Shown piece after piece: positions 4,602 through 23,436 of a DNA stretch of 32,653 nucleotides. Position 1 is the first letter of the stretch; each line of letters opens with the position of its first letter. The notes beneath the pieces were generated by a model that had not been told where the DNA came from, ran no database searches, and saw only the letters and a list, made by a program, of their open reading frames with translations. The stretch spans positions 1 through 32,653 of the forward strand of contig JAVXVR010000589.1 of NCBI GenBank assembly GCA_032230165.1, written 5' to 3'. Both the position numbers and the translations under genes were made by a program. Source of the DNA: Acidobacteriota bacterium. GTDB taxonomy: Bacteria; Acidobacteriota; Blastocatellia; Pyrinomonadales; Pyrinomonadaceae.

Positions 4602-4627
4602 AACATTTGGTTGACTGTGTTTGTGCC

Positions 4628-5872: not shown

Positions 5873-5990
5873 GACTTCAAAACCTCTTCGAGACTTCTTC
5901 GAGACCAGGGCGGGAGACGTTTCAGCTTTGCTATAAGAATGATAGTAAGGCTCGCCCGCACGGAGATGCAAGAAGTAGGATGCCTAAAAA

Positions 5991-6113
5991 CAGAGGTTAG
6001 ATGTCAGAGGTCAGAGGTTAGAGGTTAGAGGTTAGACTAAAAACAAAAGACGCGGCGCGCATTATTTCGCGCCGCGTCTCTACTAATCTCTAATCTCTAA
6101 CCTCTGACCTCTG
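5991..6113. repeat. Heptamer tandem repeats (GAGGTTA/GAGGTCA) arranged as a long imperfect palindrome around a terminator hairpin
   Basis: Left arm, about 5993-6034: GAGGTTA GATGTCA GAGGTCA GAGGTTA GAGGTTA GAGGTTA. Right arm, about 6084-6111: TAATCTC TAATCTC TAACCTC TGACCTC, the reverse complements of GAGATTA, GAGATTA, GAGGTTA and GAGGTCA. The arms flank the inner 12-bp hairpin at 6048-6079. Confidence 0.85.
6048..6079 (-). terminator. Rho-independent terminator of the 6117..6908 gene
   Basis: AGACGCGGCGCG, an 8-nt loop, then CGCGCCGCGTCT: a perfect 12-bp GC-rich stem. On the minus strand it is followed by TTTGTTTTT, the reverse complement of AAAAACAAA at about 6039-6047. Confidence 0.75.
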
Positions 6114-6116
6114 CTT

Positions 6117-6908: not shown

Positions 6909-7074
6909 TATGATTCCTCCGAGGCGGATCGATTCGACTATCGGACGTTTACCAGACAGAGGCGCGCTTTGGCAAGCGGGAGAGAGTCAGCCGCACAGAT
7001 GGCGCGAGCGTGGCGCGCGGTTGCCTGAAAAGTGAGGCGCGAACCCACCGCGAAGGCGCGTGCCGCCCCGCGCA

Positions 7075-7110
7075 AGAGAAAAAGGCTGGCGCGATTCCTT
7101 CGCGCCAGCC
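7075..7110 (-). terminator. Rho-independent terminator downstream of the 7251..10682 gene
   Basis: GGCTGGCGCG, a 7-nt loop, then CGCGCCAGCC: a 10-bp stem. On the minus strand it is followed by TTTTTCTCTT. Confidence 0.65.
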
Positions 7111-7207
7111 CTCAATGTTCGACGGCAGTCAGCCGCGCCTCACTGCATCATCAACGCGCCGCCCGCCCGCTGTGACGCGCATCAGCGCGCGTCAGTAAAG
7201 ATGACGA

Positions 7208-7239
7208 GAGGGAGTGCGCGCCTGATAGCACACTCCCTC
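7208..7239 (-). terminator. Hairpin immediately after the stop of the 7251..10682 gene
   Basis: GAGGGAGTG, a 14-nt loop, then CACTCCCTC: a perfect 9-bp stem 12 nt past the stop codon. The downstream T-tract is weak. A third hairpin (TGACGCGC..GCGCGTCA) lies at about 7171-7192. Confidence 0.4.
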
Positions 7240-7250
7240 CCGTCGTTTGG

Positions 7251-10200: not shown

Positions 10201-10682
10201 CCGGAAGAGGGAGTGTTCGAGAGCGGCAACGCATCCGGGTCTTGCGGCAGGTTCTTGCGGCTCGGAAGCTCGTGCTCCTTCATCAGCCGGGGCGTGCGCT
10301 CAAACGCCGGGGCGTTACTCTGCTCGCGCATGATCTCGTCGGTCAGCTTCTGCACACCGGGTTCGCCTGTGGTTGGCACGCCGATGGTCTTGCCATCCGG
10401 AGTCACTGATCCGGGTGCGCTGTTGGAGTTGCGGTCTTGCGCTCCGGCTCTCATCCGTGCGCGGGAGCTGCGTTCCTTCTCGCGCTCCCGCTCGCTCTGA
10501 CGCGAAGCAGGGGCGACGGGCGGCGTCGTCTCGCCCGGGGCGACGCGGATGGCGGTGCGCCTCTGGGCAAGTGCGGGCGAAGCGGTGGATGTCAACAACA
10601 CGGCACACAGCGCCGTGGCGACGTAGCGGCGAACGAGGAGTCCGAGCCGAAAGACGTAGCGCGAAGAGGGGGGATATTTCAT
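7251..10682 (-). CDS. Large secreted multidomain protein (1143 aa): propeller/sialidase-like core, IPT/TIG-like domain, lamin-tail domain (LTD)
   Basis: Signal peptide ...LCAVLLTSTASPALAQ, followed by a low-complexity region. The central region has repeated beta-strand-rich motifs (DPQVRYDRLSGRWILT, RNGVRWYELIV, RRWGDYSFTSVDP). An IPT/TIG-like segment follows (NVTITGTSVSG...VTITNPDGQS). The LTD signature is LLISEFRLHGTAGGNDEFIELYNNTNSPILVSD. Confidence 0.7.
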   Translation of the reverse strand: MKYPPSSRYVFRLGLLVRRYVATALCAVLLTSTASPALAQRRTAIRVAPGETTPPVAPASRQSEREREKERSSRARMRAGAQDRNSNSAPGSVTPDGKTIGVPTTGEPGVQKLTDEIMREQSNAPAFERTPRLMKEHELPSRKNLPQDPDALPLSNTPSSGVAPVLKGASVIKGGASLKDAPAGAKSAGGATRSPNTINAPQTLGTSFTGATLADTGSFPPDSMGAVGPTQFVVFVNGRVRTFNKATGAADGEINADPNVFFASVMTPVSGGSLNINFTSDPQVRYDRLSGRWILTIIDVPSQSAVGDLPNRVLIAVSDAASAGVISGSTVWTFYFVQQNTVGGGDSGEFLDYPSLGVDANALYIGGNMFGAVSGSFIGCSAFVIRKSSVLSGGPVVSTAFRGLIPDPNTTDGMLTPRGVDNYDPAATEGYFIGVSNAAFGRLIFRRIGTPSGTPTISADILITTPATTSFPITVDHLGDTGGTNGNLDSLDDRLYAAQIRNGRLWTAHNLAITSAGVASNSNTQRRNGVRWYELIVPPTTGTPTVNQSGTIFDSAATVALARQYWIPTVGVSGQGHAAFGYSTAGTPFHADAATNGRLRTDTLGTTGAVNIYTATTGNYNPPSDPGPPRRWGDYSFTSVDPKDDMTMWTIQEFCNANNSYGVRVVKLAAPPPAAPNTASTFSVPSGSSSTNVTITGTSVSGSEFYDPGANLAPPALPFNHISATVSGGVVVNSVTYTDPTHVTLNLDTTAAPNGAKNVTITNPDGQSTTTNGVFYVGAAPPSPLLISEFRLHGTAGGNDEFIELYNNTNSPILVSDTAGGTGYAVVGTNTTGTFSTRFTIPNGTLIPARGHYLGTNNGASGYSLGTAGDVTYATGIVDGGGVAVFSTTTAASWGTNSRLDAVGFQGITGTTLFTEGTSLLPIAGITVNSEHSFLRKLTTGVPQDTGDNASDFMFVSTTGGILSALQSSLGAPGPENTLSPVQRTTQFPASLIDACQSNAAPPNRVRDLTADIPNNSTFGTLTVRRRFTNNTGGVVTQLRFRIVDVTTLPVPVGVADLRARASTTATVTLSPACGGGTVTVQGLTLETPPTQTIGGGYNSTLAAGTITVATPLAPGASINVQFLLGVQQQGGFRFFVTLETLP

Positions 10683-10744
10683 GTCAGCCTTTCTCGGTTT
10701 AAGGGAACTTGGTTAAAGGTTGATTACGTTCAGAGACGTTACTC

Positions 10745-10962
10745 TTGGAGGAGGTGATGCGAACGTCTCGGACGCGACTACTTCAAAAGTGCTGAAAACA
10801 ATTCGGCGCGCTGAAAACTTAAAACGCCGGGTGTGCCTGCTTGGAAGGTCTTACGAGGTTGGAGGCTGCGAACGCCTCGGTCGCAACTGCTTTATGTCTA
10901 TGAAAAGCTATTCCGCACGCTGGAACTTAAAACGTATGGGTGTGCCCGTTGGCAGGTCTATC
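10745..10962. repeat. Tandem duplication of a ~108-109-nt non-coding element upstream of the 7251..10682 gene
   Basis: Unit 1 (about 10745-10853) and unit 2 (about 10854-10962) share conserved blocks. These are GCGAACG(T/C)CTCGG(A/T)CGC(G/A)ACT(A/G)CTT, TGAAAA, ATTC(G/C)GC(G/A)CGCTG(A/G)AACTTAAAACG and GGGTGTGCC..TTGG.AGGTCT. The GCGAACG blocks are 109 nt apart and the CTTAAAACG blocks 108 nt apart. The region is visibly less GC-rich than the flanking genes. Confidence 0.8.
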
Positions 10963-11099
10963 TCTCAAGGGCGGAGATAGCGGAGATTAACCTTTGCTCC
11001 GCATTATTGTCAATTGATTTACTACCTCGCGCCGTAGTTGCGCGCCGCCCGCGCCGACGGCGCGCACGCGACTCTGGGCGGGCAACGCGGCGGACGCCT

Positions 11100-11627
11100 T
11101 TAACGGCATTTCCAGATGCGACCTTCGCTGCCGCGCGTGAGCGTGTAAGTGCCGATGGTCTGCCCCCGTTCGGTGAGTGTGACGGTGAGAGTCATCGTCT
11201 GATCTTTAATCGTGCCGGTGTAGCGTGCGGACTGGCTGATGGGTGTGATGCCGACACGGATCGGTCCGGGCGACTCACGGACGTGCGTGCCCTTCGCGTC
11301 GAAGCGACCTTCGCTATCGGCGATGAGTGGCTCGTCGATCTTTCCGTGGGCGCAGTCGTATTCGATGGTCGCGCCGCCCTCCGTCAACACGAGCCGGATG
11401 TGATCGCCGCCCCACACGCCTTCCGCCGCGCGCGCCGTCCGTTTCTTCAGGGTGTGATTCACTTTCTTCTGCTTCGATCTTTTCTTCTGCGACGTGATCC
11501 GGTGTGCCCTCGCACCGGCGGTGCTCTGCCCACGCACGTCTCGCGGCGCGGCGTAGCCCCGTCCCTGTGAAAGAGTCAGGAGCAGAGACACGGCGAAGAC
11601 GAGCGACGTAAATTTCCGAGCAAGCAT
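11100..11627 (-). CDS. Small secreted protein of unknown function
   Basis: 175 aa. The signal peptide is MLARKFTSLVFAVSLLLTLSQGRGYA. A basic K/R-rich linker follows, then a beta-rich domain containing a Cys pair (EYDCAHG...RIWKCR). I do not recognise the family. Confidence 0.55.
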   Translation of the reverse strand: MLARKFTSLVFAVSLLLTLSQGRGYAAPRDVRGQSTAGARAHRITSQKKRSKQKKVNHTLKKRTARAAEGVWGGDHIRLVLTEGGATIEYDCAHGKIDEPLIADSEGRFDAKGTHVRESPGPIRVGITPISQSARYTGTIKDQTMTLTVTLTERGQTIGTYTLTRGSEGRIWKCR

Positions 11628-11732
11628 CCGTATCCTTCGGCGTCAAAGAGAGTGTGCGATCTATCCGGCTGACATCGTAGCACCGCCGCCGCCTCGGATG
11701 CTACGCGCGCGCGTCTGCGTATACCGCACCGC

Positions 11733-11760
11733 TTGACAGGCGGCGAGCGCCTCTTTTAAT
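11733..11760 (+). promoter_or_regulatory. Candidate sigma70-type promoter for the 11947..14240 operon
   Basis: TTGACA (about 11733-11738), a 16-nt spacer, then TTTAAT (about 11755-11760; 5 of 6 matches to TATAAT). This would imply a ~190-nt leader. Hand counted, no experimental support. Confidence 0.35.
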
Positions 11761-11946
11761 GTATCGCTTCTTCGTTCGAGGACGGTAAGCCTCACCTGAG
11801 CCAGTCTCGCGTGAACAACCACTAACCAGCCAGCACGAAGGAACCTTACGCCCCCAATATCATCGGAGAATTGTGTCCGCGCGCCGCGCGCCTCAGACGC
11901 AACGCTTCGTCAACCCTCAACACTCGCAATGTAAGGAGAAGTCTGT

Positions 11947-12501
11947 ATGCACATCAAGCGAAACGCAAAGCGCCACGGGAGCGCCGCGCGCGCCTTAGCC
12001 CTCGCCTGCCTGCTGCTCTTTGGCGCGGGCGTGGCGTTCGGGCAAGACACGCAAGCGCCCGCCGCCGCCGCGGATCAGGAGTTTACCGTGACCGATCTAT
12101 TGAAGCTGCCGGGCAGAGTCGTCGGCAAAGGCAGCAACACGACGCCGAAGGGATTACACAAGCTGCGCTCTTACCGCGTTGAAGAGGTGGCGCTGCCGCA
12201 CATCACGAACGTCGAGCTGAAGGGTCAGCACGTCCCCGTCACGAAAGCTTTCCGCGTGACGATCACGGGCGGACCTTTCGCCGTGCGCGCGCTGCCGCCG
12301 GTCATCTGGCTCGACGACGTGGCGATAGGCTACGGCATCGAGAGCGAAGACCTCGACGCCATCACCGTCGTCACCTACGACGAGTCGCTGCTGCGCGACG
12401 GCGCGACGATCTATCTCTCCTACGGCGACAAGGAGAACAAGCAAGAGCGCACGGCGCTGCCGGAGAAACTGAAGCTCGGCACGAAAGGAGTCCAACCGTA
12501 A
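11947..12501 (+). CDS. Secreted protein of unknown function, translationally coupled to the downstream hydrolase
   Basis: 184 aa. AAGGAG lies about 10 nt upstream of the ATG. The signal peptide is ...ALALACLLLFGAGVAFGQ. Its stop overlaps the next start (TAATG at 12499-12503). Confidence 0.6.
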   Translation: MHIKRNAKRHGSAARALALACLLLFGAGVAFGQDTQAPAAAADQEFTVTDLLKLPGRVVGKGSNTTPKGLHKLRSYRVEEVALPHITNVELKGQHVPVTKAFRVTITGGPFAVRALPPVIWLDDVAIGYGIESEDLDAITVVTYDESLLRDGATIYLSYGDKENKQERTALPEKLKLGTKGVQP

Positions 12502-14240
12502 TGCGTAAGACCCTCACGACTTTCACCCTCGCACTGTTCTGCGTCCTCGCGTGCGCCGCCGCAGTGGCAGCGCAGACGCCCGACCCCGGCACGACCGGAG
12601 CTTACGCCGTCACGCGCGAAGAGTACGACTACGGCAACCTCGCCTTTCAGCCGAGCGGCTTCCCCTCGGCGGTCGAGCTGAAGGCTTCCGTTCACCATCC
12701 CACCGACATGACGGGCGGACCCTTTCCCCTAATCGTTTTCCTCCACGGCAGGCACGCCACCTGTTATCGCGGCACGACCGCAAGCTTGCGCTGGCCCTGC
12801 GCGGCTAACCAGCAGCCGATCCCAAGCTACCAGGGCTACGATTACATCGCGCAGACGCTCGCCAGCAACGGCTACATCGTCGTCTCCATCTCAGCCAACG
12901 GCATCAACGCCTTCGACAACAACGTCAACGATCTCGGCATGCAGGCGCGCGCCGAACTCATCGAGCGTCACCTCGATCAGTGGCGCACCTTCAACACGAC
13001 GGGCGCGTCGCCCTTCGGCACGAAGTTCGTCGGCAAGGTCGATCTCACGCGCGTCGGCACGATGGGTCACTCGCGCGGCGGCGAGGGCGTCGTCAAGCAC
13101 TACGTCTATAACGCGAGCCTCGGCTCGCCCTACACCGTCAAGGCGGTCTTCCCGCTCGCGCCCGTTGACTTCAACCGACCCGTCGTCAACAACGCCGCGC
13201 TCGGCGTCGTCCTCCCCTACTGCGACGGCGACGTGAGCGACAATCAGGGCATACACTTCTACGACGACGCGCGCTACAACGTCGCGGGCGACACCGGCGC
13301 GAAGCACACCATTCAGGTGATGGGCGCAAATCACAACTTCTACAACACCATCTGGACGCCCGGCATGTTCGCCGCGGGCACGGCGGACGACTGGAATTCG
13401 GGCGTCTCCGGCGGCACGAGCGATCCGCAGTGCGGCACGGTCGCGGGCAATCACCGTTTGACGAGCGCGCAGCAGCGCGGGACGGGTCTCGCTTACCTCT
13501 CCGCCTTCATGCGCGTCTATGTCGGCGGCGAGACGCAGTTCACGCCCATCCTGACGGGCGCGGCTGCGCCGCCCGCTTCGGCGCAGACGACCGATCTGCA
13601 CGTCTCCTATCACGCGCCCGACGCGGCGACGAAACGGCGCGACGTGAATCGCTTGCTCACGGCGACGAACCTGACGACCGACACGCTCGGCGGCGCGACG
13701 ACGCAAACGGGGCTCACGCCGCACGATCTCTGCGGCGGCAACTCGCCAGAGCCGCAGCACTGCCTCACGGCGGCGCAATCAACGAGCCGTCAACCGCACA
13801 CCGTGCCGAGCGCGCGTTCGTCTCTGCGGGGCTTGAGCCAATTGCGCACCGGCTGGGCGTCGGGCGGCGCGAGCTACACGAACGATCTGCCCACGGGGGC
13901 GCGTGACGTGAGCGCGTTTCAGGCTTTGCAGTTCCGCGTCAGCGTCAACTTCGACGATGCGCGCAACGCGAAAGCGCCGCAGAACTTCTCGGTCGTCCTC
14001 ACCGACGGCGCGGGCGCGCAATCGAGCGTGCGCGTCGGCGATGTGTCGAGCGTGCTCTTCTACCCGCCGGGCACGACAGGTCCCGTGCCGAAAGTGCTGC
14101 TCAACATGGTGCGCCTCCCGCTCACCTCTTTCACGGGCGTCAACCTGACGGACATCCGCTCCGTCAAGTTCCAGTTCGATCAGACCGCGCAGGGCGCGCT
14201 CCTCATCTCCGATCTGGCGTTCGCCTCCGCGCCGAACTGA
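12501..14240 (+). CDS. Secreted alpha/beta hydrolase (lipase/esterase or PAF-acetylhydrolase-like) with a C-terminal beta-sandwich-like domain
   Basis: Signal peptide MRKTLTTFTLALFCVLACAAAVAAQ. PLIVFLHGRHA is oxyanion-region-like. The nucleophile elbow is GTMGHSRGGEG (GxSxG). The candidate acid residue lies in PYCDGDVSD and the candidate His in MGANHNFYN. About 200 aa of unassigned sequence follow at the C-terminus. Confidence 0.7.
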   Translation: MRKTLTTFTLALFCVLACAAAVAAQTPDPGTTGAYAVTREEYDYGNLAFQPSGFPSAVELKASVHHPTDMTGGPFPLIVFLHGRHATCYRGTTASLRWPCAANQQPIPSYQGYDYIAQTLASNGYIVVSISANGINAFDNNVNDLGMQARAELIERHLDQWRTFNTTGASPFGTKFVGKVDLTRVGTMGHSRGGEGVVKHYVYNASLGSPYTVKAVFPLAPVDFNRPVVNNAALGVVLPYCDGDVSDNQGIHFYDDARYNVAGDTGAKHTIQVMGANHNFYNTIWTPGMFAAGTADDWNSGVSGGTSDPQCGTVAGNHRLTSAQQRGTGLAYLSAFMRVYVGGETQFTPILTGAAAPPASAQTTDLHVSYHAPDAATKRRDVNRLLTATNLTTDTLGGATTQTGLTPHDLCGGNSPEPQHCLTAAQSTSRQPHTVPSARSSLRGLSQLRTGWASGGASYTNDLPTGARDVSAFQALQFRVSVNFDDARNAKAPQNFSVVLTDGAGAQSSVRVGDVSSVLFYPPGTTGPVPKVLLNMVRLPLTSFTGVNLTDIRSVKFQFDQTAQGALLISDLAFASAPN

Positions 14241-14268
14241 ACGCGCCCGACGGGCACGCTGCTCCCCA

Positions 14269-14307
14269 CAGGGACGCTGGAGACATCTCCGGCGTCCCTG
14301 CTCTTTT
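14269..14307 (+). terminator. Rho-independent terminator of the hydrolase operon
   Basis: CAGGGACGC, a 14-nt loop, then GCGTCCCTG, followed by CTCTTTT. It lies 29 nt after the stop at 14240. Confidence 0.7.
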
Positions 14308-14573
14308 GGCAACCCGGCAAGTGTGAGCTTGAAGCCGATTCGACGAGCGATGAGACGACGCTGAGCTTGTCGTGATTCGCCGGGTATGTCTTCCGGCTAA
14401 TATTTCCTGTAGTATATGCGCCGTCGGTCTGACCCGTCCCGTTTTCTCTTCCTTGAACGTGAGATCGTAAACTAGAATCAGGAGGAGAGCTTTTACGCTC
14501 CGCTTTTGGTCAAGGCAGTCGGCATGACTACAAGCAAGATAATTCTTTGAACGAACAGGGTTAAGAAAAGCAG

Positions 14574-15392
14574 ATGACCCCAGAGACAGAAACCACTACC
14601 GCCGAGACTTCGCAAGCAGGCAAGTACGTCTATTGCATCATCGAAGCCGACGAGCCGCGCTCGTTCGGCGCGATGGGCATCGGCGCGCGCGGCGACGATG
14701 TTTACACCATCCACCACAACGGGCTCGCGGCGGTCGTCTCGAACACGCCGCTCGTCGTCTACGACCCGACGCGCGAGAACGTCTTCGCGCACGAGCAGGT
14801 GAACGAGACCGTGATGCGCGAGTTCACCGTGCTCCCGATGGCGTTCGGCGCGCTCTTCCGCACAGAGGACGACATCATCGAGCTGATTCGCGGCACATAC
14901 GACGCGCTGCGCGACGTGCTCGCCAAGATGGAAGGCAAGGTCGAGTTCGGTCTGAAGGTCAACTGGGATCGCGATCAGGTCATCGGGCAACTCGAAGAGG
15001 AGAACGACGAGATCCGTCACCTCAAAGAGCAGATCACCTCGCGCGCCACCGGCTCGACCTACTTCGCGCGCATGCAGCTCGGTCGCCTCATCGAGACGGC
15101 GCTCTCCGATCAGGCGGACGCCTACATCCGCGAGGTCTATTCCGCCTTGCGCGACACGGCGGTCGCCTCGCGCGCCAACAAGCCCATCGGGGATCGGATG
15201 ATCATGAACGCCGCGTTCCTCATCGAGCGCGACCGCGAGGCGGAGTTCGACGCGAAGGTCAAAGAGATCGCCGCCAAGTACGACAGCAAACTCTCATTTA
15301 AGTACACGGGTCCCTGGCCCCCCTATAATTTCGTCCACATCCGCCTGAAGCTGGAGCGCGGCGAGGGCGCGACGGAAGTCATCTCGAAGTAA
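14574..15392 (+). CDS. Gas vesicle protein, GvpL/GvpF family (paralog 1)
   Basis: 272 aa. Family hallmarks: YVYCIIEAD..., DDVYTIHHNGLAAVVSN, ENVFAHEQVNETVMREFTVLPMAFGALF, a coiled-coil middle region, and a C-terminal FKYTGPWPPYNFV. Confidence 0.9.
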   Translation: MTPETETTTAETSQAGKYVYCIIEADEPRSFGAMGIGARGDDVYTIHHNGLAAVVSNTPLVVYDPTRENVFAHEQVNETVMREFTVLPMAFGALFRTEDDIIELIRGTYDALRDVLAKMEGKVEFGLKVNWDRDQVIGQLEEENDEIRHLKEQITSRATGSTYFARMQLGRLIETALSDQADAYIREVYSALRDTAVASRANKPIGDRMIMNAAFLIERDREAEFDAKVKEIAAKYDSKLSFKYTGPWPPYNFVHIRLKLERGEGATEVISK

Positions 15393-15416
15393 ACGGGTCA
15401 CGCGGGAGTCGAAGCG

Positions 15417-15743
15417 ATGTTCTTCATAGACGATCTGCTGCTCGCGCCGGTCAACGGCTTCAAGTTCATCCTCGGTCAGATTCAGAAGATGGCTGATCAG
15501 GAGTTGAACGACGACTCGCTCATCAAGGAGCAACTCTTAGAGTTGCAGATGCGTCTCGAACTCGAAGAGATTTCCGAAGAGGATTATGCCGCGCAGGAGG
15601 CTGTGCTCTTCGCGCGCCTGCGCGTCATACGCGCGCACCAGCTCGACCTGCTCCATCAAGTCCACACCGCCGAGTCCACTTCCATCGTCATCGAAGCGGG
15701 CGGCGACGAGGGCGACTTCTGGGAGCCGGGCGGGGGGAAATAA
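15417..15743 (+). CDS. gvpG: Gas vesicle protein G
   Basis: 108 aa. MFFIDDLLLAPVNGFKFILGQIQKMADQELNDDSLIKEQLLELQMRLELEEISEEDYAAQEAVLFARL closely matches the GvpG pattern (MF..DDLLL.P...l.fv...i...A..E..D...i...L.eLq...e.GEI.EeEY...E..L..RL). GGGAG lies about 8 nt upstream of the ATG. Confidence 0.9.
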   Translation: MFFIDDLLLAPVNGFKFILGQIQKMADQELNDDSLIKEQLLELQMRLELEEISEEDYAAQEAVLFARLRVIRAHQLDLLHQVHTAESTSIVIEAGGDEGDFWEPGGGK

Positions 15744-15746
15744 GGC

Positions 15747-17954
15747 GTGGGCAAGAGGGCAGCCGGTGTGTCGGCGCGCGACGCAGACAAGACTTCGCCT
15801 GACGACGCACACGCGCCCGCCGCCGCAGCGTCGCCGCAGCCTCGCTACTATTTCTTCGGCGGCAAGGGCGGCGTCGGCAAAACGACCGCAGCCTGTGCCT
15901 TCGCGCTCAGCCTGCTCGATGCGTCGGACGAAGCGAGCGACGGCGAACAGATTCTCCTCTTCTCAACCGACCCCGCACACTCTCTCTCAGACAGCCTCGA
16001 CATAGATGTCGGCGACCGACTCACAGAGGTCGCACGCCGTGGCAAGTCGCGCCTCTTCGCCTACGAGATGGACGCTACTGCTGCGCTCGCGAAGTTTAAG
16101 GACGAACATCGCGGCGTGCTCGCAGAGATCGCCGAGCGCGGCACGCTCTTAGACGAGGGCGACATCAACGAGCTGCTCGATCTCTCTCTGCCCGGCATGG
16201 ACGAGGTGATGTCGCTCTTCGAGCTGAGCGAGCTTGACCGCACGAACAAGTTTGCGCGCGTCGTCGTTGACACCGCGCCGTCGGGTCACACGTCGCGGCT
16301 GCTCAAACTTCCGGAAGTCTTCTCGCACATGATCGGCGCGCTCGATCTCTTGGCGGAGAAGCACCGCTATATCGTCGCGCACTTCGCGCGGGGTCGGCGC
16401 GCGCGCGCCGACGAGGTTGATCTCTTCATCAACGATCTCACAGAGAGGATCGGGCGCGTGCGCTCGATGCTCCACGACGCGACGCGCGCTCGCTTCACGC
16501 TCGTCACGATCCCGGAAGCGATGGCGGTCGAAGAGACGGCGCGCTACTTCGCGTTGCTCAACGGTGAAGGCGTGCCCGTCACCGATCTGATCGTTAACCG
16601 TGTCGAGCGCACACACGCACACTGCCCTTACTGTCGCGCGCGCGCCGCGACGCAGAAGCCCTGGCTCGCACGCATCGCACGCGACTTCAAGGCACTGAGG
16701 CTGCGTAGCGTGCCACTCTTCGCCGAAGAGCTACACGGTCTCAACGCGCTCCGCGAGTTCGCGGACGCAATACGTGAGTTCGCCGTCGCGCGCGACGCGG
16801 CGTCTGCGGTCAGTGGTAAAGCGGCTTCGTCTAATTCGGTCGGTCAAGCAGCATCTTTGTCCGAAGACGAAAAGGGCGGCGCGCGCTTCACGCTCGAAGC
16901 GCGGCGGCTGCTCATCTTCGGCGGCAAAGGCGGCGTCGGCAAGACGACCGCCGCCTGCGCCTCCGCGCTCGCGCTTGCAGGAAGCGACCGGCGCGGGCGT
17001 GTGCTCGTCTTCTCGACCGATCCGGCGCACTCGCTCTCGGACAGTTTCGGTGAGCGCGTCGGCGAGTTGAAGCGCACTGTGGGCGGCATAAAGAATTTGG
17101 ACGCGATGGAGATCGATCCCGGGGCGCGCTTCGAGGAGTTGAAGGCGCGCTTCCGCGCGTGGACTGATGAGTTATTCGCGTCGCTTACCGCAGGCTCACG
17201 CTTCGAGGTGCAGTTCGACCGCGAGGCGATGCGCGAGCTGGTGGAGCTCGCGCCGCCGGGCATTGATGAGATCGCCGCGCTCAGCGTCATTAGCGATCTG
17301 GTGGATGAGAAGACCTACCAGACCATCGTGCTCGACACCGCGCCGACCGGGCATCTCATACGCTTCCTTGAGCTGCCGGAAGTTGCGCTCTCATGGGTGC
17401 GTGCTTTTCTCAAGCTGCTGCTCAAGTATAAGAACGTGGTGAAGGCTGGCAGCGTCGCGGAAGAACTGATCGCGCTCTCGAAGAGCATCAAGCGGATCAT
17501 CGCACTACTCACTGACGCAGACGCCTGTGAGTTTGTCGGCGTCGCGATCCCGGAACGCATGAGCCTCGAAGAGACGGCGCGGCTCGCGACGACGCTCGAA
17601 CGCCTGCGTGTGCCGATGCGTCGGCTGCTCGTCAACTCAATCGTGCCGGAGCGTGCCGCCGCGTCGTGCGACTTCTGCCGTGCGCGGCGTGACGCGCAGC
17701 TCGTCGTCCTCGACGAATTCCGTCGAAGACTCGGTCGAAAGATCGAGTTGTTCGTCGCCCCGCAGCAGCCCGAAGAGATACGCGGCGTCGAGCGACTGCG
17801 CGAACACTTCGCGGGCTGGCGCGAGTTGAACGCGCCGCCGCGTGCGAGTGCGGGCGCGAAGAAGAAGTTGAGCGCGAAGAGCGCGGGGAAGAAGAAGGCG
17901 AAGGCTGCGACGGCGAGCGCGCAGAAGCGCGTGCGGGAGGCGGAGAGAAGATGA
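15747..17954 (+). CDS. Internally duplicated Get3/ArsA-family P-loop ATPase (two complete ATPase halves, each with a CxxC)
   Basis: 735 aa with a GTG start 4 nt after the gvpG stop.
- Half 1: FFGGKGGVGKTT (aa 36-47), LLFSTDPAHSLSDSL, VVDTAPSGHTSRLLKLPE, LIVNRVERTHAHCPYCRARAATQ (C293/C296).
- Half 2: IFGGKGGVGKTT (aa 390-401), LVFSTDPAHSLSDSF, VLDTAPTGHLIRFLELPE, LLVNSIVPERAAASCDFCRARRDAQ (C641/C644).
- The tail is K/A-rich and basic.
- The stop overlaps the next gene's ATG (ATGA at 17951-17954). Confidence 0.85.
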   Translation: MGKRAAGVSARDADKTSPDDAHAPAAAASPQPRYYFFGGKGGVGKTTAACAFALSLLDASDEASDGEQILLFSTDPAHSLSDSLDIDVGDRLTEVARRGKSRLFAYEMDATAALAKFKDEHRGVLAEIAERGTLLDEGDINELLDLSLPGMDEVMSLFELSELDRTNKFARVVVDTAPSGHTSRLLKLPEVFSHMIGALDLLAEKHRYIVAHFARGRRARADEVDLFINDLTERIGRVRSMLHDATRARFTLVTIPEAMAVEETARYFALLNGEGVPVTDLIVNRVERTHAHCPYCRARAATQKPWLARIARDFKALRLRSVPLFAEELHGLNALREFADAIREFAVARDAASAVSGKAASSNSVGQAASLSEDEKGGARFTLEARRLLIFGGKGGVGKTTAACASALALAGSDRRGRVLVFSTDPAHSLSDSFGERVGELKRTVGGIKNLDAMEIDPGARFEELKARFRAWTDELFASLTAGSRFEVQFDREAMRELVELAPPGIDEIAALSVISDLVDEKTYQTIVLDTAPTGHLIRFLELPEVALSWVRAFLKLLLKYKNVVKAGSVAEELIALSKSIKRIIALLTDADACEFVGVAIPERMSLEETARLATTLERLRVPMRRLLVNSIVPERAAASCDFCRARRDAQLVVLDEFRRRLGRKIELFVAPQQPEEIRGVERLREHFAGWRELNAPPRASAGAKKKLSAKSAGKKKAKAATASAQKRVREAERR

Positions 17955-18790
17955 GCGCGCGCCGCAACAAGAAAGATAAAGTCGAATCGGCGCGTGGATT
18001 TTACGTCTATTGCGTGGGCGCGCGCGAAGAGCTTGCGCGTCTGTTCGAGGGAGAACTGCCCGAAGCCATCGAGCCCGACGCGCCGCTCGAAATGCTGGCG
18101 GGCGATGAACTAGCCGCTGTCGCGAGCAGTGTCCCACTGTCGGATTACGACGAAGAGAACTTGACCGCGCGGCTCACAGACGCGGAATGGATCGCCGTCA
18201 GAGCCATGCGTCACGAGCGCGTCGTCGAGCGCTTCGCGCGGCGCGCAGGCGTTGTGCCCTTGCGCTTCGGCACGATCTACCTGCGTCGCGAAGGCGTCGC
18301 GGGGATGCTCGCTGAGAAGCAAGGAGAGTTGCGCGCGGCGGTCGAGCGTTTACGCGGCAAAGAAGAATGGAGCGTCAACGTCTATTGGGATCGCGCGAAG
18401 TTGTTGGCATCAATCGTCGAGCTGAGCCCGCGCCTGCGTGAGTTAAGCAAGCGTGCGGGTTCGGTCTCACCGGGTCAGGCGTATCTCATGCGCAAACAGG
18501 TGGACGCGCTGCGCGCCGACGAAGCGCGCGAGGAGTTGAGCCGCGCGACGCGAGAGATCGAGCGCGCTCTCTCAGAGGCGAGCGCGGCGAGCGTGCGTCT
18601 GCAAGTGAGCAAGGCGGAAGCGGCGGAGCGGCGCGAGCTGTCGGCGAAGTTCGCTTTCCTCGTCGAGCGCGCGCGCTTCAAGGAGTTTCGTGCGGCGGCT
18701 GAGCGTCTCGCGCGTGAGCGCGCCGACGCGGGGCTGCGACTTGAGCTGGCGGGACCTCTGCCCGCTTACAGTTTCGTCGCGGAGTCGTAG
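17951..18790 (+). CDS. Gas vesicle protein, GvpL/GvpF family (paralog 2)
   Basis: 279 aa. Family hallmarks: FYVYCVGAREE, LAAVASSVPLSDY, RAMRHERVVERFARRAGVVPLRFGTIY, EWSVNVYWD, and a C-terminal LAGPLPAYSFV. A GGAGG-rich SD region lies upstream, inside the preceding gene. Confidence 0.85.
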   Translation: MSARRNKKDKVESARGFYVYCVGAREELARLFEGELPEAIEPDAPLEMLAGDELAAVASSVPLSDYDEENLTARLTDAEWIAVRAMRHERVVERFARRAGVVPLRFGTIYLRREGVAGMLAEKQGELRAAVERLRGKEEWSVNVYWDRAKLLASIVELSPRLRELSKRAGSVSPGQAYLMRKQVDALRADEAREELSRATREIERALSEASAASVRLQVSKAEAAERRELSAKFAFLVERARFKEFRAAAERLARERADAGLRLELAGPLPAYSFVAES

Positions 18791-18851
18791 AGCGGAGTGG
18801 CGGCGCGGGAGCAGTGCCCGTCGAAAGTTTGAGCACGCATCGAAAGTTTGC

Positions 18852-19106
18852 ATGGCGGACGAAATTTTACAGCAGCCGGAACCACTCGATCTGCTTGAGC
18901 ACAGCGACCTGTCTCTGCTGGAGACGCTCGACCACGTGCTCGCGCGCGGGATCGTCATCGCGGGCGAGATTACGATCTCGGTTGCCGACGTCGATCTCAT
19001 CTTCATGGGCTTGAACGTCCTGCTGACCTCGACCGAGACCGCACGCGAAGTGCTCAACCGACGCGCCGACGCGCTGGCGGCGGGCGAGTCGAAAGGCGAC
19101 GACTGA
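18852..19106 (+). CDS. Small GvpA/J/M/S-family gas vesicle protein (GvpS/GvpM-like)
   Basis: The in-frame ATG at 18852 within track ORF 18690..19106 gives 84 aa. LLETLDHVLARGIVIAGEITISVADVDLIFMGLNVLLTSTETAREV matches the gas-vesicle structural-protein core (L.dvLdr.L..G.vi.g...isva.v.L....l...l.s.eta). Confidence 0.8.
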   Translation: MADEILQQPEPLDLLEHSDLSLLETLDHVLARGIVIAGEITISVADVDLIFMGLNVLLTSTETAREVLNRRADALAAGESKGDD

Positions 19107-19142
19107 GCGCGCTTGGCGTGCCGCTCGCGACTCTCGTTTTCG

Positions 19143-19859
19143 ATGAACGTCTATGCTTACTGTTTGAGCGATGAGATCGCAGCCGACGCGCTGGGAGCGG
19201 TCACAGGCGTCGGCGGGGCGACGACGCGGCTGCTGTGGCGCGACGGTGTCGCGGCGGTCGTGAGTGATTTCGACGGAGACGCGGTCGCCGTCACGCGCGA
19301 GAACGTGCTGGCGCACGAGCGCGTCGTCGGGGCTATGCTTGCGCGCGCGACGCCGCTGCCGTTTCGGTTCGGCACGGTGATGGGCGAGGAAAGATTGATG
19401 AGCTACGTCGCCGCGCAGAGCGAAGCGTTGAAGGCGCAACTCGAACGCGTGCGCGGCTGCGTCGAGATGAGCGTCAAAGTGATCTGGAAGGCGGAGGCGG
19501 TCGGCGTTGAGTCGTCGCCGGAACATGCGGCGGAGTCGGCGGGGTCGGCGGAATCGGGCGCGGGCACGGCTTTCTTGCTGGCGAAGCGGCGGGAGATTTT
19601 TGGCGAGGAGGCGAAGGCTGTGCGCGCGAAGGAGATCACCGAGTGGCTGGCGGGCTGGCTCGCGGGCGCGGTGCGGGATGCGCGGGTCGAGGTTAATCCG
19701 CACGGTGCGATGGTTGTGTCCGCCGCATACTTGGTCGAGCGTGGGCAACTCGCAGAGTACCGTGAGCGTCTGCGGCTCGCGCGGGAGGAGCGACGCGATT
19801 TACATTTCTTGACGAGCGGTGCGTGGTCGCCTTACAGTTTCACGAGTGCTCGCGCTTGA
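19143..19859 (+). CDS. Gas vesicle protein, GvpL/GvpF family (paralog 3)
   Basis: The in-frame ATG at 19143 within track ORF 19113..19859 gives 238 aa. Family hallmarks: MNVYAYCLSDE, GVAAVVSDF, ENVLAHERVVGAMLARATPLPFRFGTVM, VEMSVKVIWK, and a C-terminal LTSGAWSPYSFT. Confidence 0.85.
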   Translation: MNVYAYCLSDEIAADALGAVTGVGGATTRLLWRDGVAAVVSDFDGDAVAVTRENVLAHERVVGAMLARATPLPFRFGTVMGEERLMSYVAAQSEALKAQLERVRGCVEMSVKVIWKAEAVGVESSPEHAAESAGSAESGAGTAFLLAKRREIFGEEAKAVRAKEITEWLAGWLAGAVRDARVEVNPHGAMVVSAAYLVERGQLAEYRERLRLAREERRDLHFLTSGAWSPYSFTSARA

Positions 19860-19861
19860 GT

Positions 19862-20251
19862 GTGGGCACGGCTCGGAGTAACCTAGTGAAGCCTTCCCCT
19901 GACTCCCCCAGTCCGGTTGAGCCGGAGGTGGAGACCGCGCACGCCGCGGAGTTCATCGAAGAACTGCGGCGCGTGTCGGACACTCTGCCGCCGCGCATCA
20001 ACATAGATGCGCAGTCCGTCGAACAAGGTCTGGCAAAGCTCGTCTTGACGCTCATCGAACTCATCCGTCGGCTGTTGGAAAAACAGGCTGTCAGACGGAT
20101 GGAGGGCGGCGGTCTCTCGCCGGAGCAAGTGGAGGAGTTGGGTCTCGCCCTGATGAAGCTGGAAGGGAAGATGCAGGAGTTGAAGGCGCAGTTCGGACTG
20201 GCTGAGGAAGACCTCAACCTCGATCTCGGACCCGTCGGTCGTTTGATCTGA
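19862..20251 (+). CDS. gvpK: Gas vesicle protein K
   Basis: Track ORF 19823..20251. RINIDAQSVEQGLAKLVLTLIELIRRLLEKQAVRRMEGGGLSPEQVEELGLALMKLEGKMQELKAQFGLAEEDLNLDLGPVGRL matches the GvpK signature. The start is uncertain: GTG 19862 and GTG 19886 lie just past the upstream stop, while 19823 would overlap gvpF/L by 37 nt. Confidence 0.85.
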   Translation: MGTARSNLVKPSPDSPSPVEPEVETAHAAEFIEELRRVSDTLPPRINIDAQSVEQGLAKLVLTLIELIRRLLEKQAVRRMEGGGLSPEQVEELGLALMKLEGKMQELKAQFGLAEEDLNLDLGPVGRLI

Positions 20252-20351
20252 AGGGCGGGGCGGTTATAAAACAACTTTCGTGGTGGTGACCGGAGCGCGC
20301 CGTGCTTTTCTCAGCACAGCAATCGCCACACACTGTTCGGAGGGGCGTAGA

Positions 20352-20747
20352 TTGTCGAGCGAGCGAACGAGTTTGATTACGGCGCGACCGCCGGGTCTGG
20401 TTGACGTGCTCGACCGGATTCTGGACAAGGGCTTGGTGATTGCGGGCGACATCAAGGTGTCGCTCGCCAACGTCGAGCTGCTGACCTTGCAGATACGTCT
20501 GCTCGTCTGCTCGATTGATAAAGCCGAGCAGATCGGTCTCAACTGGTGGCGCTACGACTCGAACCTGACGACGCGCGCCGAGCGCGCCGAATCCGAAAAC
20601 ACCGAGTTGCGCGAGCGACTCGCAGAGCTTGAGCGCGAGGTGCGGCGTTTGAACACGCCCGCCGACTCTGCGGCGAAAGCCCCGCGCTCGACAGCAACGC
20701 GCGCGCGCGTTGGCGGCGCGACGAAGAAGACAAGGAAGCGCGGCTGA
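20352..20747 (+). CDS. gvpJ: Gas vesicle protein J-like (GvpA-family core plus a coiled-coil/basic C-terminal extension)
   Basis: Track ORF 20280..20747. I prefer TTG 20352, which is preceded by GGAGGGG about 7 nt upstream. The core is LVDVLDRILDKGLVIAGDIKVSLANVELLTLQIRLLVCSIDKAEQIGLNWW. A C-terminal ELRERLAELEREVRRL segment and a basic tail follow. Confidence 0.85.
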   Translation: MSSERTSLITARPPGLVDVLDRILDKGLVIAGDIKVSLANVELLTLQIRLLVCSIDKAEQIGLNWWRYDSNLTTRAERAESENTELRERLAELEREVRRLNTPADSAAKAPRSTATRARVGGATKKTRKRG

Positions 20748-20858
20748 GCCGTCTCGCGCGCTGCAAAGCCGGACGGGCAAGCCGTAAGCCCGCGCCGCAA
20801 AGCAAGACCTCGCGTTGTGTTTAGTCAATCTTAATCTGGGAAAGAGGACTCAAAGCAC

Positions 20859-21161
20859 ATGGCTGTTGAAAGAGCGCCCGGCGGAACAAGTCTCATCGAC
20901 GTGCTGGATCGCGTGCTGGACAAGGGCATCGTGATTGATGCCTGGGTGCGCATCTCTCTCGTCGGCATCGACCTGATCACAATCGAGGCGCGCGTCGTCG
21001 TCGCTTCGATTGACACTTATCTGAAGTACGCCGAGGCGGTCGGTCTGACGCCCGCCGTCTCGCGCCCGGCGCTCACGCCCGGAGCCGCCGAGTCGTTCGA
21101 CGACGAGACGACGACGACAACCACACGTCGCCGTTCCACCTCCGACGTTGACCGCGGCTAA
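20859..21161 (+). CDS. gvpA: Major gas vesicle structural protein GvpA, with a ~30-aa C-terminal extension
   Basis: [64 protein letters not shown] is near-identical in pattern to canonical GvpA (..[53 protein letters not shown]). AAGAGGA lies upstream of the ATG. The extra tail is [36 protein letters not shown]. Confidence 0.93.
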
Positions 21162-21243
21162 AGCGCGCGAACTCGTCAAGCGCGCGCGCGCGTCGTCGCC
21201 GCGCGTGTGGCGTTGACCTGAAAGCCCGTCCTGCCCGTCTGTC

Positions 21244-23415
21244 ATGGGGAACGTTCCGGCACAACTCGCCCCGCCGCACCTGCCGCATCTGGCGGAGGAT
21301 GACGCGCTCGATCTGCGCCTGCGTCAGTACGACTTCTTCATGGAGACGACGACGCAGATGCTCGCCACGTCGCGACTCCAAGAGCGTCTGCTGCTCGCGG
21401 CGGAGGCGATCGTTTCGGGTCTCGGCTACCGTCAATCGGCAATCGCGATGTTGGACGAGCGCAGTGGCACGCTGCGCGTGCGCGCGACCGCCGGATTCCC
21501 CGAAGGCGCGGACGGGGGGCGCGTAATGCCGCTCGATTCAGGCGCGGCGTGCGTGAGGGTGGTGCATGAGGGGCGACCCCTCTGGGTTTCCATGCAGGAG
21601 GACGAAGCCTCGCGCGCGCTGCTTGGCGGGATGGGGTGGGAGCAGGACGTGTTGGCGCTCCCGCTCTTCGGCTTGCAGGAGGCAAGCCCGAAGCGCGCGT
21701 GGGAACTCGCCCTCAAGCCGGGCTTCGCCGACAGCTCTCTGGGTCTGGAACGCTCCTCGTGTCTCGGCGTGCTCTACGTCGGCGCGCGCGAGGAGATGGT
21801 TGACGACTTCTCCCGAAGATTCCTCGCGCGGCTCTCCGACCGCTTCGGTCTGATCATCGCGCTCGGCATCCAGCACGAGCGACTGAAGGCGAACGTCGAG
21901 AAGTTGCAGCGCGAGCGGCAGTGGGTCGAGTCGATCATGAAGTCGGTCGCAGACCCCATCGTGCTCACCAATCTCGACAACGAAATCTTGCTGCAAAACC
22001 GGCGCGCCGAAGAGTTGTTCAGCGGCTCGAACGACGCGGGCGAGGGCAAGCGCCGCGCGCTGAAGATGAACGATCTGCTCTTCTCCGCGTATCTGTCGAG
22101 CGCGACGGTCTCATCCTCTTCGGTCGTGCAGCGCGACATCACGCTCGTCGATCCCATCTTCGGCTCCGACATACACTTCGAGGTCATCTCGACACCCGCC
22201 TTGAACGCGCGCGGCGAGCGGCTCGGACTCGTCTCGATCTTCCGCGACGTGACCGATCTGCGCGAGGCGCACGAAGAGCTGGCGCGCAACTTCACAAAGT
22301 TGCAGCACGCTGAGTCTGAAGCGCGACGCGAGCGCGACCGCCTCGATCTGATCATCGAGAACGTCGGTCACCCCGTCGTCGTCTGCGACGCTTCGGGCAA
22401 CTTCATACTTTTTAACCATCGCGCCGAGTTGTTGTTTCAGCAGGACGAAGCGACGACGATGCGTGCGGCGACCGCCGTGCGCGCCAACTCCGTCAAGCTC
22501 ACGTCGTTCATCTCGGCGCTCGCCTCCGCCTCGGAGACCGACAGGCAGGCGGAGATCGAACTCATTGATCCGGAATCGGGGCAGGGGCTGCCGATGGAGA
22601 TCACTGCGGGCGAGGTGATGGACGCGCAGGGGCAGGTGACGGCGGTCGTCTCCGTGCTGCACGATCTCACCGAGATACGCGAGCTTGAGCGACGCCGCGT
22701 CGAGCAGCAACTCTTCGAGTCGGAGAAGCTGGCGGCGGTCGGTCGTCTCGCCGCCTCCATCGCGCACGAGGTGAACAACCCGCTCGAAGCGATCAAGAAC
22801 TCGCTTTATTTGATGGAGACGACGCGCGAGGCGGAGAAGAACGCGCGCTTTCTTGAGATCGCGCGCAAGGAGACCGAGCGCGTCTCGCACATCATCAGCC
22901 AGATGCTGGGTTTCGCGCGCAGATCGGGCGAAGTCGAGTGGGCGGACGTGAACCAACTGCTCGAAGAGACGCTCGTGCTCGTCGAGAAGAAGATGAAGCA
23001 GTCGGGCGTGCGCATCGTGCGCGAACTCGACGCGCGTGTGCCGCGTGTGCGCGCCCGCGCCGACCAGTTGCGGCAGGTCTTCCTCAACCTGATCCTCAAC
23101 GCGCAGCAAGCCATCAAGGGCGGCGGCGAGATTCGCGTCGCGACTTCGCCCTACGAGCCTTCAATTCAGCCCTCCGTCCTCGTCCAGATCGGCGACACGG
23201 GCGTCGGCATCAGCGAGGACGAGATGGCGCACATCTTCGAGCCTTTCTACTCGACGCGGAAGAAGGGCACGGGGCTGGGGCTCTGGGTGACGCACGACAT
23301 CGTCCGCCAGCACGGCGGGCGCATCGAGGTGTTGAGCGAGAAGGGGCGCGGCACGACCTTCCAGATCATCCTGCTCGTCGAGTCGCCGGTGCTGGAAGAA
23401 GAGAGCAAAAAATAG
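21244..23415 (+). CDS. Cytoplasmic sensor histidine kinase (GAF - PAS - PAS - HisKA - HATPase_c)
   Basis: 723 aa with no obvious TM segment. The N-terminus is GAF-like (LLLAAEAIVSGLGYRQSAIAMLDE...). Two PAS-like segments follow (SIMKSVADPIVLTNLDNEILLQN; LIIENVGHPVVVCDASGNFILFN). The H-box is LAASIAHEVNNPLEAI, the N-box FLNLILNAQQAI, G1 QIGDTGVGI and G2 KKGTGLGLWV. The start is uncertain (ATG 21244 or 21331). Confidence 0.85.
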   Translation: MGNVPAQLAPPHLPHLAEDDALDLRLRQYDFFMETTTQMLATSRLQERLLLAAEAIVSGLGYRQSAIAMLDERSGTLRVRATAGFPEGADGGRVMPLDSGAACVRVVHEGRPLWVSMQEDEASRALLGGMGWEQDVLALPLFGLQEASPKRAWELALKPGFADSSLGLERSSCLGVLYVGAREEMVDDFSRRFLARLSDRFGLIIALGIQHERLKANVEKLQRERQWVESIMKSVADPIVLTNLDNEILLQNRRAEELFSGSNDAGEGKRRALKMNDLLFSAYLSSATVSSSSVVQRDITLVDPIFGSDIHFEVISTPALNARGERLGLVSIFRDVTDLREAHEELARNFTKLQHAESEARRERDRLDLIIENVGHPVVVCDASGNFILFNHRAELLFQQDEATTMRAATAVRANSVKLTSFISALASASETDRQAEIELIDPESGQGLPMEITAGEVMDAQGQVTAVVSVLHDLTEIRELERRRVEQQLFESEKLAAVGRLAASIAHEVNNPLEAIKNSLYLMETTREAEKNARFLEIARKETERVSHIISQMLGFARRSGEVEWADVNQLLEETLVLVEKKMKQSGVRIVRELDARVPRVRARADQLRQVFLNLILNAQQAIKGGGEIRVATSPYEPSIQPSVLVQIGDTGVGISEDEMAHIFEPFYSTRKKGTGLGLWVTHDIVRQHGGRIEVLSEKGRGTTFQIILLVESPVLEEESKK

Positions 23416-23436
23416 AGCGGCAGCCAGCTTCAAGTC

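Follow-up and report, generated by a model that had tools for sequence, protein, structure and literature searches.

Two-domain homologues of the arsenite-pump ATPase ArsA were reported in gas-vesicle (gvp) operons of four phyla by Castillo and Saier (2010; PMC2963123). Their gvp-operon taxa were Bacteroidetes/Chlorobi, Geobacter, Anabaena and Nostoc, and Acidobacteria bacterium Ellin345, and the Ellin345 homologue (cluster 6) was accompanied by L/F, J, K and M genes only. The authors noted that the gvp-operon homologues do not carry the three ArsA cysteines and proposed that their probable role is to energise a biogenesis step of gas vesicles other than the one served by GvpN. CxxC motifs, zinc, Get3 and tail-anchored proteins are not mentioned in that paper. 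Farkas et al. (2019; PMC6593721) described a bacterial 'Group 8' of tandem Get3 homologues from Myxococcales and some Proteobacteria, which have TRC40 inserts and a CxxC in both domains and were called unique in all domains of life. The function of Group 8 was stated as unknown in 2019, and the tandem bacterial proteins were listed as having no Get1/2/4-binding residues. Gene context was outside that survey, and the word 'vesicle' does not appear in it. Here, we analysed a stretch of 32,653 nucleotides (nt), called the window below, which is the forward strand of contig JAVXVR010000589.1 (GCA_032230165.1) from an Acidobacteriota bacterium of the Pyrinomonadaceae. Searches with Pfam and NCBIfam placed in it a gvp operon with nine genes, all on the plus strand, in which an open reading frame (ORF) for a fused two-domain ATPase (15747-17954) lies between gvpG and gvpL.

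This gene belongs to the published family of gvp-linked two-domain ArsA homologues. On balance, its product is probably dedicated to gas vesicles, a covalently fused pseudo-dimer ATPase of the Get3/TRC40 type that handles a hydrophobic Gvp segment. The question of how the very hydrophobic GvpA stays soluble and enters a vesicle as it grows also limits heterologous expression of gas vesicles as acoustic reporters, and the overlooked ATPase is a candidate for subunit handling during assembly that is easy to test. The linkage to gvp genes is also the first functional clue for the tandem CxxC group of bacterial Get3 proteins. An earlier note on this DNA, made from the sequence alone, had put the gene forward as a candidate new assembly factor. 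That claim of novelty does not hold, since two-domain ArsA homologues in gvp operons were reported in 2010 (PMC2963123) and tandem CxxC Get3 proteins in 2019 (PMC6593721). An explicit link between gvp association and a Get3-type chaperone was found in none of the literature searched. Within the searchable library, no paper was found that joins 'gas vesicle' and 'Get3', and the Nodularia and Chloroploca papers retrieved name ArsA and gas vesicles in unrelated contexts. Searches pairing gas vesicle with ArsA or Get3 did not turn up the ATPase in recent gas-vesicle reviews, and no published experimental study of the gvp-linked double ATPase was found in this literature.

The ATPase gene is tightly joined to its neighbours on both sides. 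The gvpG stop codon (TAA, 15741-15743) and the ATPase start (GTG, 15747) are separated by a 3-nt gap, and the ATPase stop (TGA) overlaps the next ATG as ATGA (17951-17954). An alternative GTG start at 15768 leaves this picture unaffected. A homologue with 67% identity on a 5.2-Mb contig (L001) lies in the order F-G-ATPase-L-M-F-K-J-A-kinase, as in the window, and there gvpG overlaps the ATPase start.

The linkage of the ATPase to gvp genes is conserved across phyla. This was determined in a census, in which one genome for each GTDB species was scanned with a pattern and the best 80 of at least 600 stretches were taken as a sample, and the 80 sampled loci were searched for gvp neighbours with the window's own Gvp proteins. 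With the 5.2-Mb contig locus L001 counted in, gvp genes were found to flank the ATPase homologue in 14 loci (L001-L008, L010, L013-L015, L017 and L029). These came from Acidobacteriota (Blastocatellia, Thermoanaerobaculia, Terriglobia, Vicinamibacterales and Candidatus Angelobacter) and Chloroflexota (Anaerolineales and Dehalococcoidales), as well as from Gemmatimonadota, Myxococcota (Labilithrix), Rokubacteria and Chlorobiaceae, the last with a single-domain homologue. Two-domain proteins without the Cys triad of ArsA were gvp-linked in 12 of 13 cases, spread over five bacterial phyla. None of the 32 two-domain ArsA proteins with all three cysteines was gvp-linked. All 10 of the two-domain proteins with CxxC at the Get3 position were gvp-linked (L002 is cut by a contig end, and only its first motif is visible). 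Of the 10 double-CxxC loci that are complete on the side after the ATPase, gvpL/F came after it in nine, and the place of the ATPase between gvpG and gvpL is conserved.

Three other sampled loci with two-domain proteins and many small flanking ORFs (L011, L012 and L016) were considered as divergent gvp clusters and rejected, since all three carry the Cys triad. L011 was additionally ruled out by its ArsR-ArsD-ArsA operon. At this Chloroflexota locus, arsR and arsD are accompanied by a gene for a two-domain ArsA that carries the Cys triad, by another arsR and by an arsC of the low-molecular-weight phosphatase (LMWP) type, and a BrnT/CopG toxin-antitoxin pair is inserted 3' of arsA. The locus served as a negative control for the census.

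The sequence comparisons supported a Get3/TRC40-type protein rather than a true ArsA pump ATPase. The Pfam ArsA_ATPase model matched in two stretches (E = 1.3e-133, 445 bits), compared to at most 57 bits for CbiA, ParA, NifH-type and other P-loop models. In NCBIfam, only the general GET3/ArsA/TRC40 model TIGR00345 was passed (451 bits, cut-off 135). The ArsA equivalog TIGR04291 (arsen_driv_ArsA) was failed with 221 bits against a cut-off of 650, as was NF041417 (ArsA_halo) with 326 bits against 800. Among PDB sequences, the best match was Chlamydomonas ARSA1 (E = 1.7e-62), a double Get3 in one fused chain, followed by Get3 from archaea and eukaryotes, and Escherichia coli ArsA was weaker (1e-36). 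The halves were aligned with reference sequences of E. coli ArsA and yeast Get3 that are identical to PDB chains 1f48_A and 2woj_A. No cysteine of the ATPase stands at the positions of E. coli ArsA C113, C172 and C422, and each CxxC falls exactly on C285/C288 of yeast Get3. The CDFCRARR of the C half is identical in Methanocaldococcus jannaschii Get3. The helical subdomain, which in Get3 forms the client groove, has 73 residues in the N half and 64 in the C half; that of Get3 has 70, and those of E. coli ArsA have 57 and 44. The hydrophobic content in the two halves is at least that of Get3. The reading of the gene as an arsenite-pump ArsA was rejected because the Cys triad is absent, both ArsA equivalog cut-offs were failed and no ars family was found among the larger ORFs of the window.

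Each half of the ATPase has a full set of nucleotide-site motifs, with STDPAHSLSD (switch I) at residues 73 and 423 and switch II as DTAPSGH at residue 175 in the N half and DTAPTGH at residue 530 in the C half. Each CxxC lies about 250 residues past its P-loop, and C50, C404 and C594 are the only other cysteines. Aligned against one another, the halves share 35% identity (E = 3e-39). At the C-terminus is a Lys/Ala-rich basic tail with a net charge of about +11, for which a helix is predicted at low confidence. This tail is unaligned in most homologues, many of which span only 85-90% of the query.

A word-indexed search with the ATPase scored 6512 proteins at E <= 1e-20, of which the top 120 were 62-80% identical and, where the source was named, mostly from Pyrinomonadaceae or Acidobacteriota. 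All 121 close homologues keep both CxxC motifs, and C50 and C404 are variable. An exhaustive representative search gave 780 clusters at E <= 1e-30. Among 138 full-length representatives (50%-identity clusters), 102 had both CxxC motifs, 27 had neither and nine had one only, a co-retention with p = 1e-19 by Fisher's exact test, uncorrected for phylogeny. Cysteine was found at the ArsA triad positions in none of the 138. Joint retention or loss of the two motifs would be expected if the four cysteines formed one site across the pseudo-dimer interface, and the CxxC pairs are thus predicted to be the halves of one shared Zn site. Both nucleotide sites are conserved across the family alignments. 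In the N half, the P-loop residues G39, K40, G41, G42, G44, K45 and T46 are invariant in a 41-sequence alignment and at least 90% conserved in a 150-sequence alignment. The nearest neighbour of a half was a half of the same type (N with N, C with C) for 81 of 82 halves, which makes the halves orthologous within each type and the fusion ancient.

Some gvp-linked homologues depart from this form. In the two-domain proteins of L004 (Thermoanaerobaculia) and L006 (Gemmatimonadaceae), both CxxC motifs are gone together. The Chlorobiaceae homologues in L013 and L014 are single-domain proteins of about 315 residues without CxxC. The Chlorobiaceae form means that the gvp association is older or broader than the fused CxxC protein.

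An AlphaFold2 model of the ATPase was built on the 150-sequence alignment and had a predicted local distance difference test score (pLDDT) of 88.8 and a predicted template-modelling score (pTM) of 0.88. Disorder in the model is confined to the N-terminus, the linker (residues 353-385) and the basic tail at the C-terminus, and long helices are predicted in the helical subdomains of both halves. The model was compared with the PDB by Foldseek, with template-modelling (TM) scores normalised to the target. The whole model matched closed-state two-domain ArsA with TM 0.78-0.80, and ARSA1 was also matched. Get3 chains, each covering one half, matched at 0.80-0.85 when in a closed state, with ADP-AlF4 or with substrate bound. 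ArsA and Get3 are not separable by fold alone, and it is the sequence features that point to Get3. These comparisons support a predicted covalent pseudo-dimer of Get3-type halves.

All that the earlier note had read from the letters about this gene agrees with these results. Its two P-loops, STDPAHSLSD, DTAP(S/T)GH and two CxxC motifs were all recovered in the translation, and the tight junctions it saw to gvpG and gvpF/L correspond to the 3-nt gap and the ATGA overlap. Its choice of a Get3-like protein over ArsA is borne out by the alignments, in which C113/C172/C422 are without counterparts and the CxxC pairs fall on Get3 C285/C288. The pseudo-dimer it proposed is supported by the full-length match to closed ArsA and the half-by-half match to closed Get3. 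The note had looked to co-occurrence with gvp genes in other genomes for support, which was found in the triad-less two-domain relatives (12 of 13). Lack of such co-occurrence, an intact metalloid site and linkage to ars genes, any of which it took as counting against its reading, were looked for and none of them was found.

The following mechanism is proposed. The four cysteines would make up a single intramolecular Zn site, the hinge between the halves. ATP binding would close the halves and form a composite hydrophobic groove, which would shield an aggregation-prone hydrophobic Gvp segment, with GvpA, the GvpJ/M-like paralogues or the GvpG N-terminus as candidates. ATP hydrolysis, probably triggered at a GvpF/L-G-K nucleation or growth complex, would then open the groove and hand the subunit to the growing shell. 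Both the mechanism and the clients (GvpA/J/M) are what we infer. The most specific form of the proposal, in which the Zn-hinged pseudo-dimer captures new GvpA-family subunits in its groove and delivers them to the GvpF/L-G-K complex in the GvpN-less clusters of soil bacteria, is tentative and, as a whole, doubtful. If it is true, the ATPase would be the missing subunit chaperone of gas-vesicle assembly and the first Get3-family machine aimed at a protein shell and not a lipid membrane.

Several points weigh against a dedicated Get3-type ATPase of this kind. Gas vesicles have no lipid membrane or Get1/2-like receptor. No Get1/2 homologue was seen in the cluster, and none of its Gvp proteins is tail-anchored, which is the classical type of Get3 client. 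CxxC is missing in L004, L006 and the Chlorobiaceae forms, so the putative Zn site is not essential to the gvp role and some lineages can dispense with it. Streptomyces-type gvp clusters, in work ascribed to van Keulen et al. in 2005, are said to have neither GvpN nor a Get3-like ATPase, which would mean that gas-vesicle genes can exist without either. The lone triad-less two-domain protein without gvp neighbours in the census, L009, comes from a Lyngbya genome. No report of gas vesicles in Pyrinomonadaceae was found in the literature, and the tandem relative in Myxococcus xanthus is not gvp-linked (PMC2963123).

The rival explanations were ranked from a GvpN-like assembly motor through a redox-switched holdase and a ParA-like positioning ATPase to a housekeeping or arsenic ATPase located by chance. 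The first of these holds that the ATPase does GvpN's job in GvpN-less clusters, driving GvpA insertion or shell maturation, and is not a holdase or targeting chaperone. No GvpN-like AAA_5 protein was found in any frame of the window when four GvpN-like proteins of related loci were used as phmmer queries, the ATPase itself had no AAA_5 match in Pfam, and no GvpN-like gene was present within +/-10 kb at the Acidobacteriota, Gemmatimonadota, Myxococcota and Rokubacteria loci. Conservation of both ATP sites is also compatible with a motor, as is the earlier proposal that these proteins energise a biogenic step (PMC2963123). Against it, a GvpN-like AAA_5 gene lies beside the Get3-like gene in the clusters of Chloroflexota L003 and L010 (two copies in L010) and Chlorobiaceae L013 and L014, so the two are not simple alternatives. 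In addition, GvpN could be encoded at another site in the genome, and SIMIBI dimer ATPases are nucleotide-dependent switches and clamps, unlike the ring-type remodelling motors of the AAA+ class. We therefore consider the assembly motor unlikely, although it is the most serious of the rivals.

These data bear on the suggestion in the earlier note that the ATPase functionally replaces GvpN, which stands in part. The GvpN-less layout is conserved in four lineages (Acidobacteriota, Gemmatimonadota, Myxococcota and Rokubacteria), and in this cluster type, as seen in the window and +/-10 kb of the related loci, the ATPase may be the sole cluster-encoded assembly ATPase. Both genes co-occur in Chloroflexota and Chlorobiaceae, however, so the ATPase is not a general alternative to GvpN and its role appears distinct. 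A CDC48-like double AAA ATPase was also seen in gvp clusters, immediately 3' of the Get3-like gene in Chlorobiaceae and with gvpF/L between the two in L003. The clusters of L003, L013 and L014 therefore hold three different ATPases (Get3-like, GvpN-like AAA_5 and CDC48-like).

Another possible explanation is that the protein is a redox- or stress-switched, ATP-independent holdase, in which CxxC oxidation frees Zn and yields a general Gvp chaperone, like oxidised yeast Get3. The four conserved cysteines at the Get3 Zn position could serve such a switch, and a holdase activity of Get3 is noted by Farkas et al. (PMC6593721). This is improbable, since strict conservation of both nucleotide sites argues for an ATP cycle and there are gvp-linked members without any CxxC (L004, L006, L013 and L014). 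It is more improbable still that the protein is a ParA/MinD-like ATPase that spaces or segregates gas vesicles. The deviant Walker A with its signature lysine and the shared SIMIBI class would fit this role, and there are weak ParA and MinD matches. These matches (ParA, MinD and CbiA) reached at most 57 bits compared to 445 for ArsA_ATPase and were far under the NCBIfam cut-offs, and a ParA/MinD assignment was rejected on that basis. Moreover, a covalent pseudo-dimer could not cycle between monomer and dimer like ParA/MinD, helical subdomains of Get3 length are present, and neither an amphipathic membrane-targeting helix nor a ParB-like partner was identified. The least probable explanation, a housekeeping targeting factor for tail-anchored proteins or a true arsenite-pump ATPase that sits in a gvp operon by chance, draws on Get3/ArsA family membership and on the public annotation of relatives as 'arsenite-transporting ATPase', and is close to refuted by the gvp linkage in five phyla with tight or overlapping junctions, the absence of the Cys triad and of ars genes nearby, the failed ArsA equivalog cut-offs and the location of 32 of 32 triad-bearing ArsA proteins in the sample outside gvp clusters.

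Most homologues with source names bear the annotation 'ArsA family ATPase' or 'arsenite-transporting ATPase'. The arsenite-pump name is very probably wrong for the gvp-linked subfamily without the Cys triad. Thousands of such genes publicly carry the label 'arsenite-transporting ATPase', which would amount to widespread mis-annotation.

The features of the window and of related loci are collected in Table 1. Pfam assigned three GvpL_GvpF, one GvpG, one GvpK and three Gas_vesicle proteins in the operon, and the longest stretch without assignment inside the cluster is about 110 nt. The gvpA gene is the most distal of the operon, 111 nt 3' of the GvpJ-like gene. Its product had been labelled GvpS-like at first and is a canonical GvpA instead. 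The larger ORFs of the window matched no GvpO, GvpC or ars family in Pfam and related profile searches. Together with the phmmer result for GvpN, this is in line with the absences listed in the earlier note. The hairpin upstream of the operon is likely the 5' boundary of the gvp transcription unit; across 14000-23600, terminator-like matches are not enriched, with six found and 7.5 expected from shuffled sequence.

Table 1. Positions of features in the window and in related loci (aa, amino acid residues of the ATPase or length of the product)
Locus	Feature	Position	Strand	Evidence or remark
Window	Schlafen AlbA_2-domain protein	3203-4528	+	Upstream of gvp cluster
Window	Terminator-like hairpin	14269-14300	+	14 pairs, 10 G-C; 3' of unrelated upstream gene; consensus match only
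Window	gvpF/L paralogue 1, 272 aa	14574-15392	+	Pfam GvpL_GvpF, E = 5e-78
Window	gvpG, 108 aa, hydrophobic N-terminus	15417-15743	+	Pfam GvpG, E = 4e-20
Window	Fused two-domain Get3/ArsA-family ATPase, 735 aa	15747-17954	+	Pfam ArsA_ATPase, 445 bits
Window	ATPase, N half	about aa 33-352		
Window	ATPase, deviant Walker A P-loop of N half, GGKGGVGKTT	15858-15887 (aa 38-47)	+	
Window	ATPase, CxxC of N half, C293-P-Y-C296	16623-16634	+	Aligns with yeast Get3 C285/C288
Window	ATPase, linker	aa 353-385		Disordered
Window	ATPase, C half	aa 386-690		
Window	ATPase, deviant Walker A P-loop of C half, GGKGGVGKTT	16920-16949 (aa 392-401)	+	
Window	ATPase, CxxC of C half, C641-D-F-C644	17667-17678	+	Aligns with yeast Get3 C285/C288
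Window	ATPase, basic tail	17844-17951 (aa 700-735)		Lys/Ala-rich
Window	gvpL/F paralogue 2, 279 aa	17951-18790	+	Pfam GvpL_GvpF; start overlaps ATPase stop (ATGA)
Window	Small GvpA-family protein, GvpJ/M-like, 77 aa	18873-19106	+	Pfam Gas_vesicle; NCBIfam GvpJ and GvpM matches weak
Window	gvpF/L paralogue 3, 248 aa	19113-19859	+	Pfam GvpL_GvpF
Window	gvpK	19823-20251	+	Pfam GvpK, E = 1e-33; true start probably downstream of 19823
Window	GvpJ-like GvpA-family protein, <=155 aa	20280-20747	+	Pfam Gas_vesicle, NCBIfam
Window	gvpA, major shell protein, 100 aa	20859-21161	+	NCBIfam NF006874, 118 bits, cut-off 100
Window	PAS histidine kinase	21244-23415	+	Pfam; directly after gvpA in gene order, followed by hybrid kinase
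Window	RND efflux operon	26205-32514	-	Downstream of gvp cluster
L001	PAS histidine kinase	15457-17628		
L005	PAS histidine kinase	14841-16976		
L008	PAS histidine kinase	6029-8221		
L029	PAS histidine kinase	11236-13371		
L003	CDC48-like double AAA ATPase	6553-8790		
L013	CDC48-like double AAA ATPase	5254-7419		
L014	CDC48-like double AAA ATPase	10896-13085		
L004	Two-domain homologue without CxxC	9911-11791		Thermoanaerobaculia
L006	Two-domain homologue without CxxC	7266-9335		Gemmatimonadaceae
L013	Single-domain homologue without CxxC	4301-5275		Chlorobiaceae
L014	Single-domain homologue without CxxC	9968-10915		Chlorobiaceae
L011	ars operon with two-domain ArsA	9030-14709		Chloroflexota; Cys triad present

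Of five related gvp clusters without GvpN that were checked, four have a PAS histidine kinase of about 720 residues inside or next to them, and this kinase is likely their dedicated regulator. At L017, the fifth, only a response-regulator receiver domain was matched by the corresponding ORF. In Rokubacteria and Vicinamibacterales, the genes are ordered J-A-kinase-F-G-ATPase-L-M-F-K, which is the window's order circularly permuted. Elsewhere in the window, the resistance-nodulation-division (RND) efflux operon (OEP, HlyD-type adaptor and AcrB-type pump) and the AlbA_2 gene have no apparent tie to the gvp cluster or to arsenic.

Compared to the systems described previously, the locus is closest to clusters 4 and 6 of Castillo and Saier, which likewise have the two domains in one chain, lie among gvpF/L, J, K and M-like genes of a gvp cluster, and have neither the Cys triad nor an arsR or arsB near. 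Their acidobacterial cluster is also without gvpN. Nothing essential is different, and the lineage here is Pyrinomonadaceae-like, other than that of Ellin345. The ATPase shares with Group 8 of Farkas et al. the tandem Get3 domains, each of which has a CxxC and a helical subdomain resembling the TRC40 insert, whereas that survey was without Acidobacteriota, Chloroflexota, Gemmatimonadota and Rokubacteria. GvpN and the ATPase are both ATPases of gvp clusters and are presumed to act in assembly, but they belong to unrelated fold classes (AAA_5 for GvpN and a SIMIBI dimer for the ATPase).

The ATPase has the same two-domain architecture as E. coli and Leptospirillum ArsA (PDB 1f48 and 9nbo), with a fold TM of up to 0.80 in the closed state. 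It differs from them in having no C113/C172/C422 site or ars operon, in its CxxC pair and in its longer helical subdomains. Chlamydomonas reinhardtii ARSA1 (PDB 5zme) is likewise a covalent Get3 pseudo-dimer that is not an arsenic pump; both CxxC motifs are absent from ARSA1, which serves chloroplast tail-anchored membrane proteins. With yeast, mammalian and archaeal Get3/TRC40, the ATPase shares its P-loop, switches I and II, the CxxC position and the length of the helical subdomain. Its cluster has no evident Get1/2 receptor, lipid membrane target or tail-anchored client, and the ATPase is fused in one chain, whereas Get3 is a homodimer.

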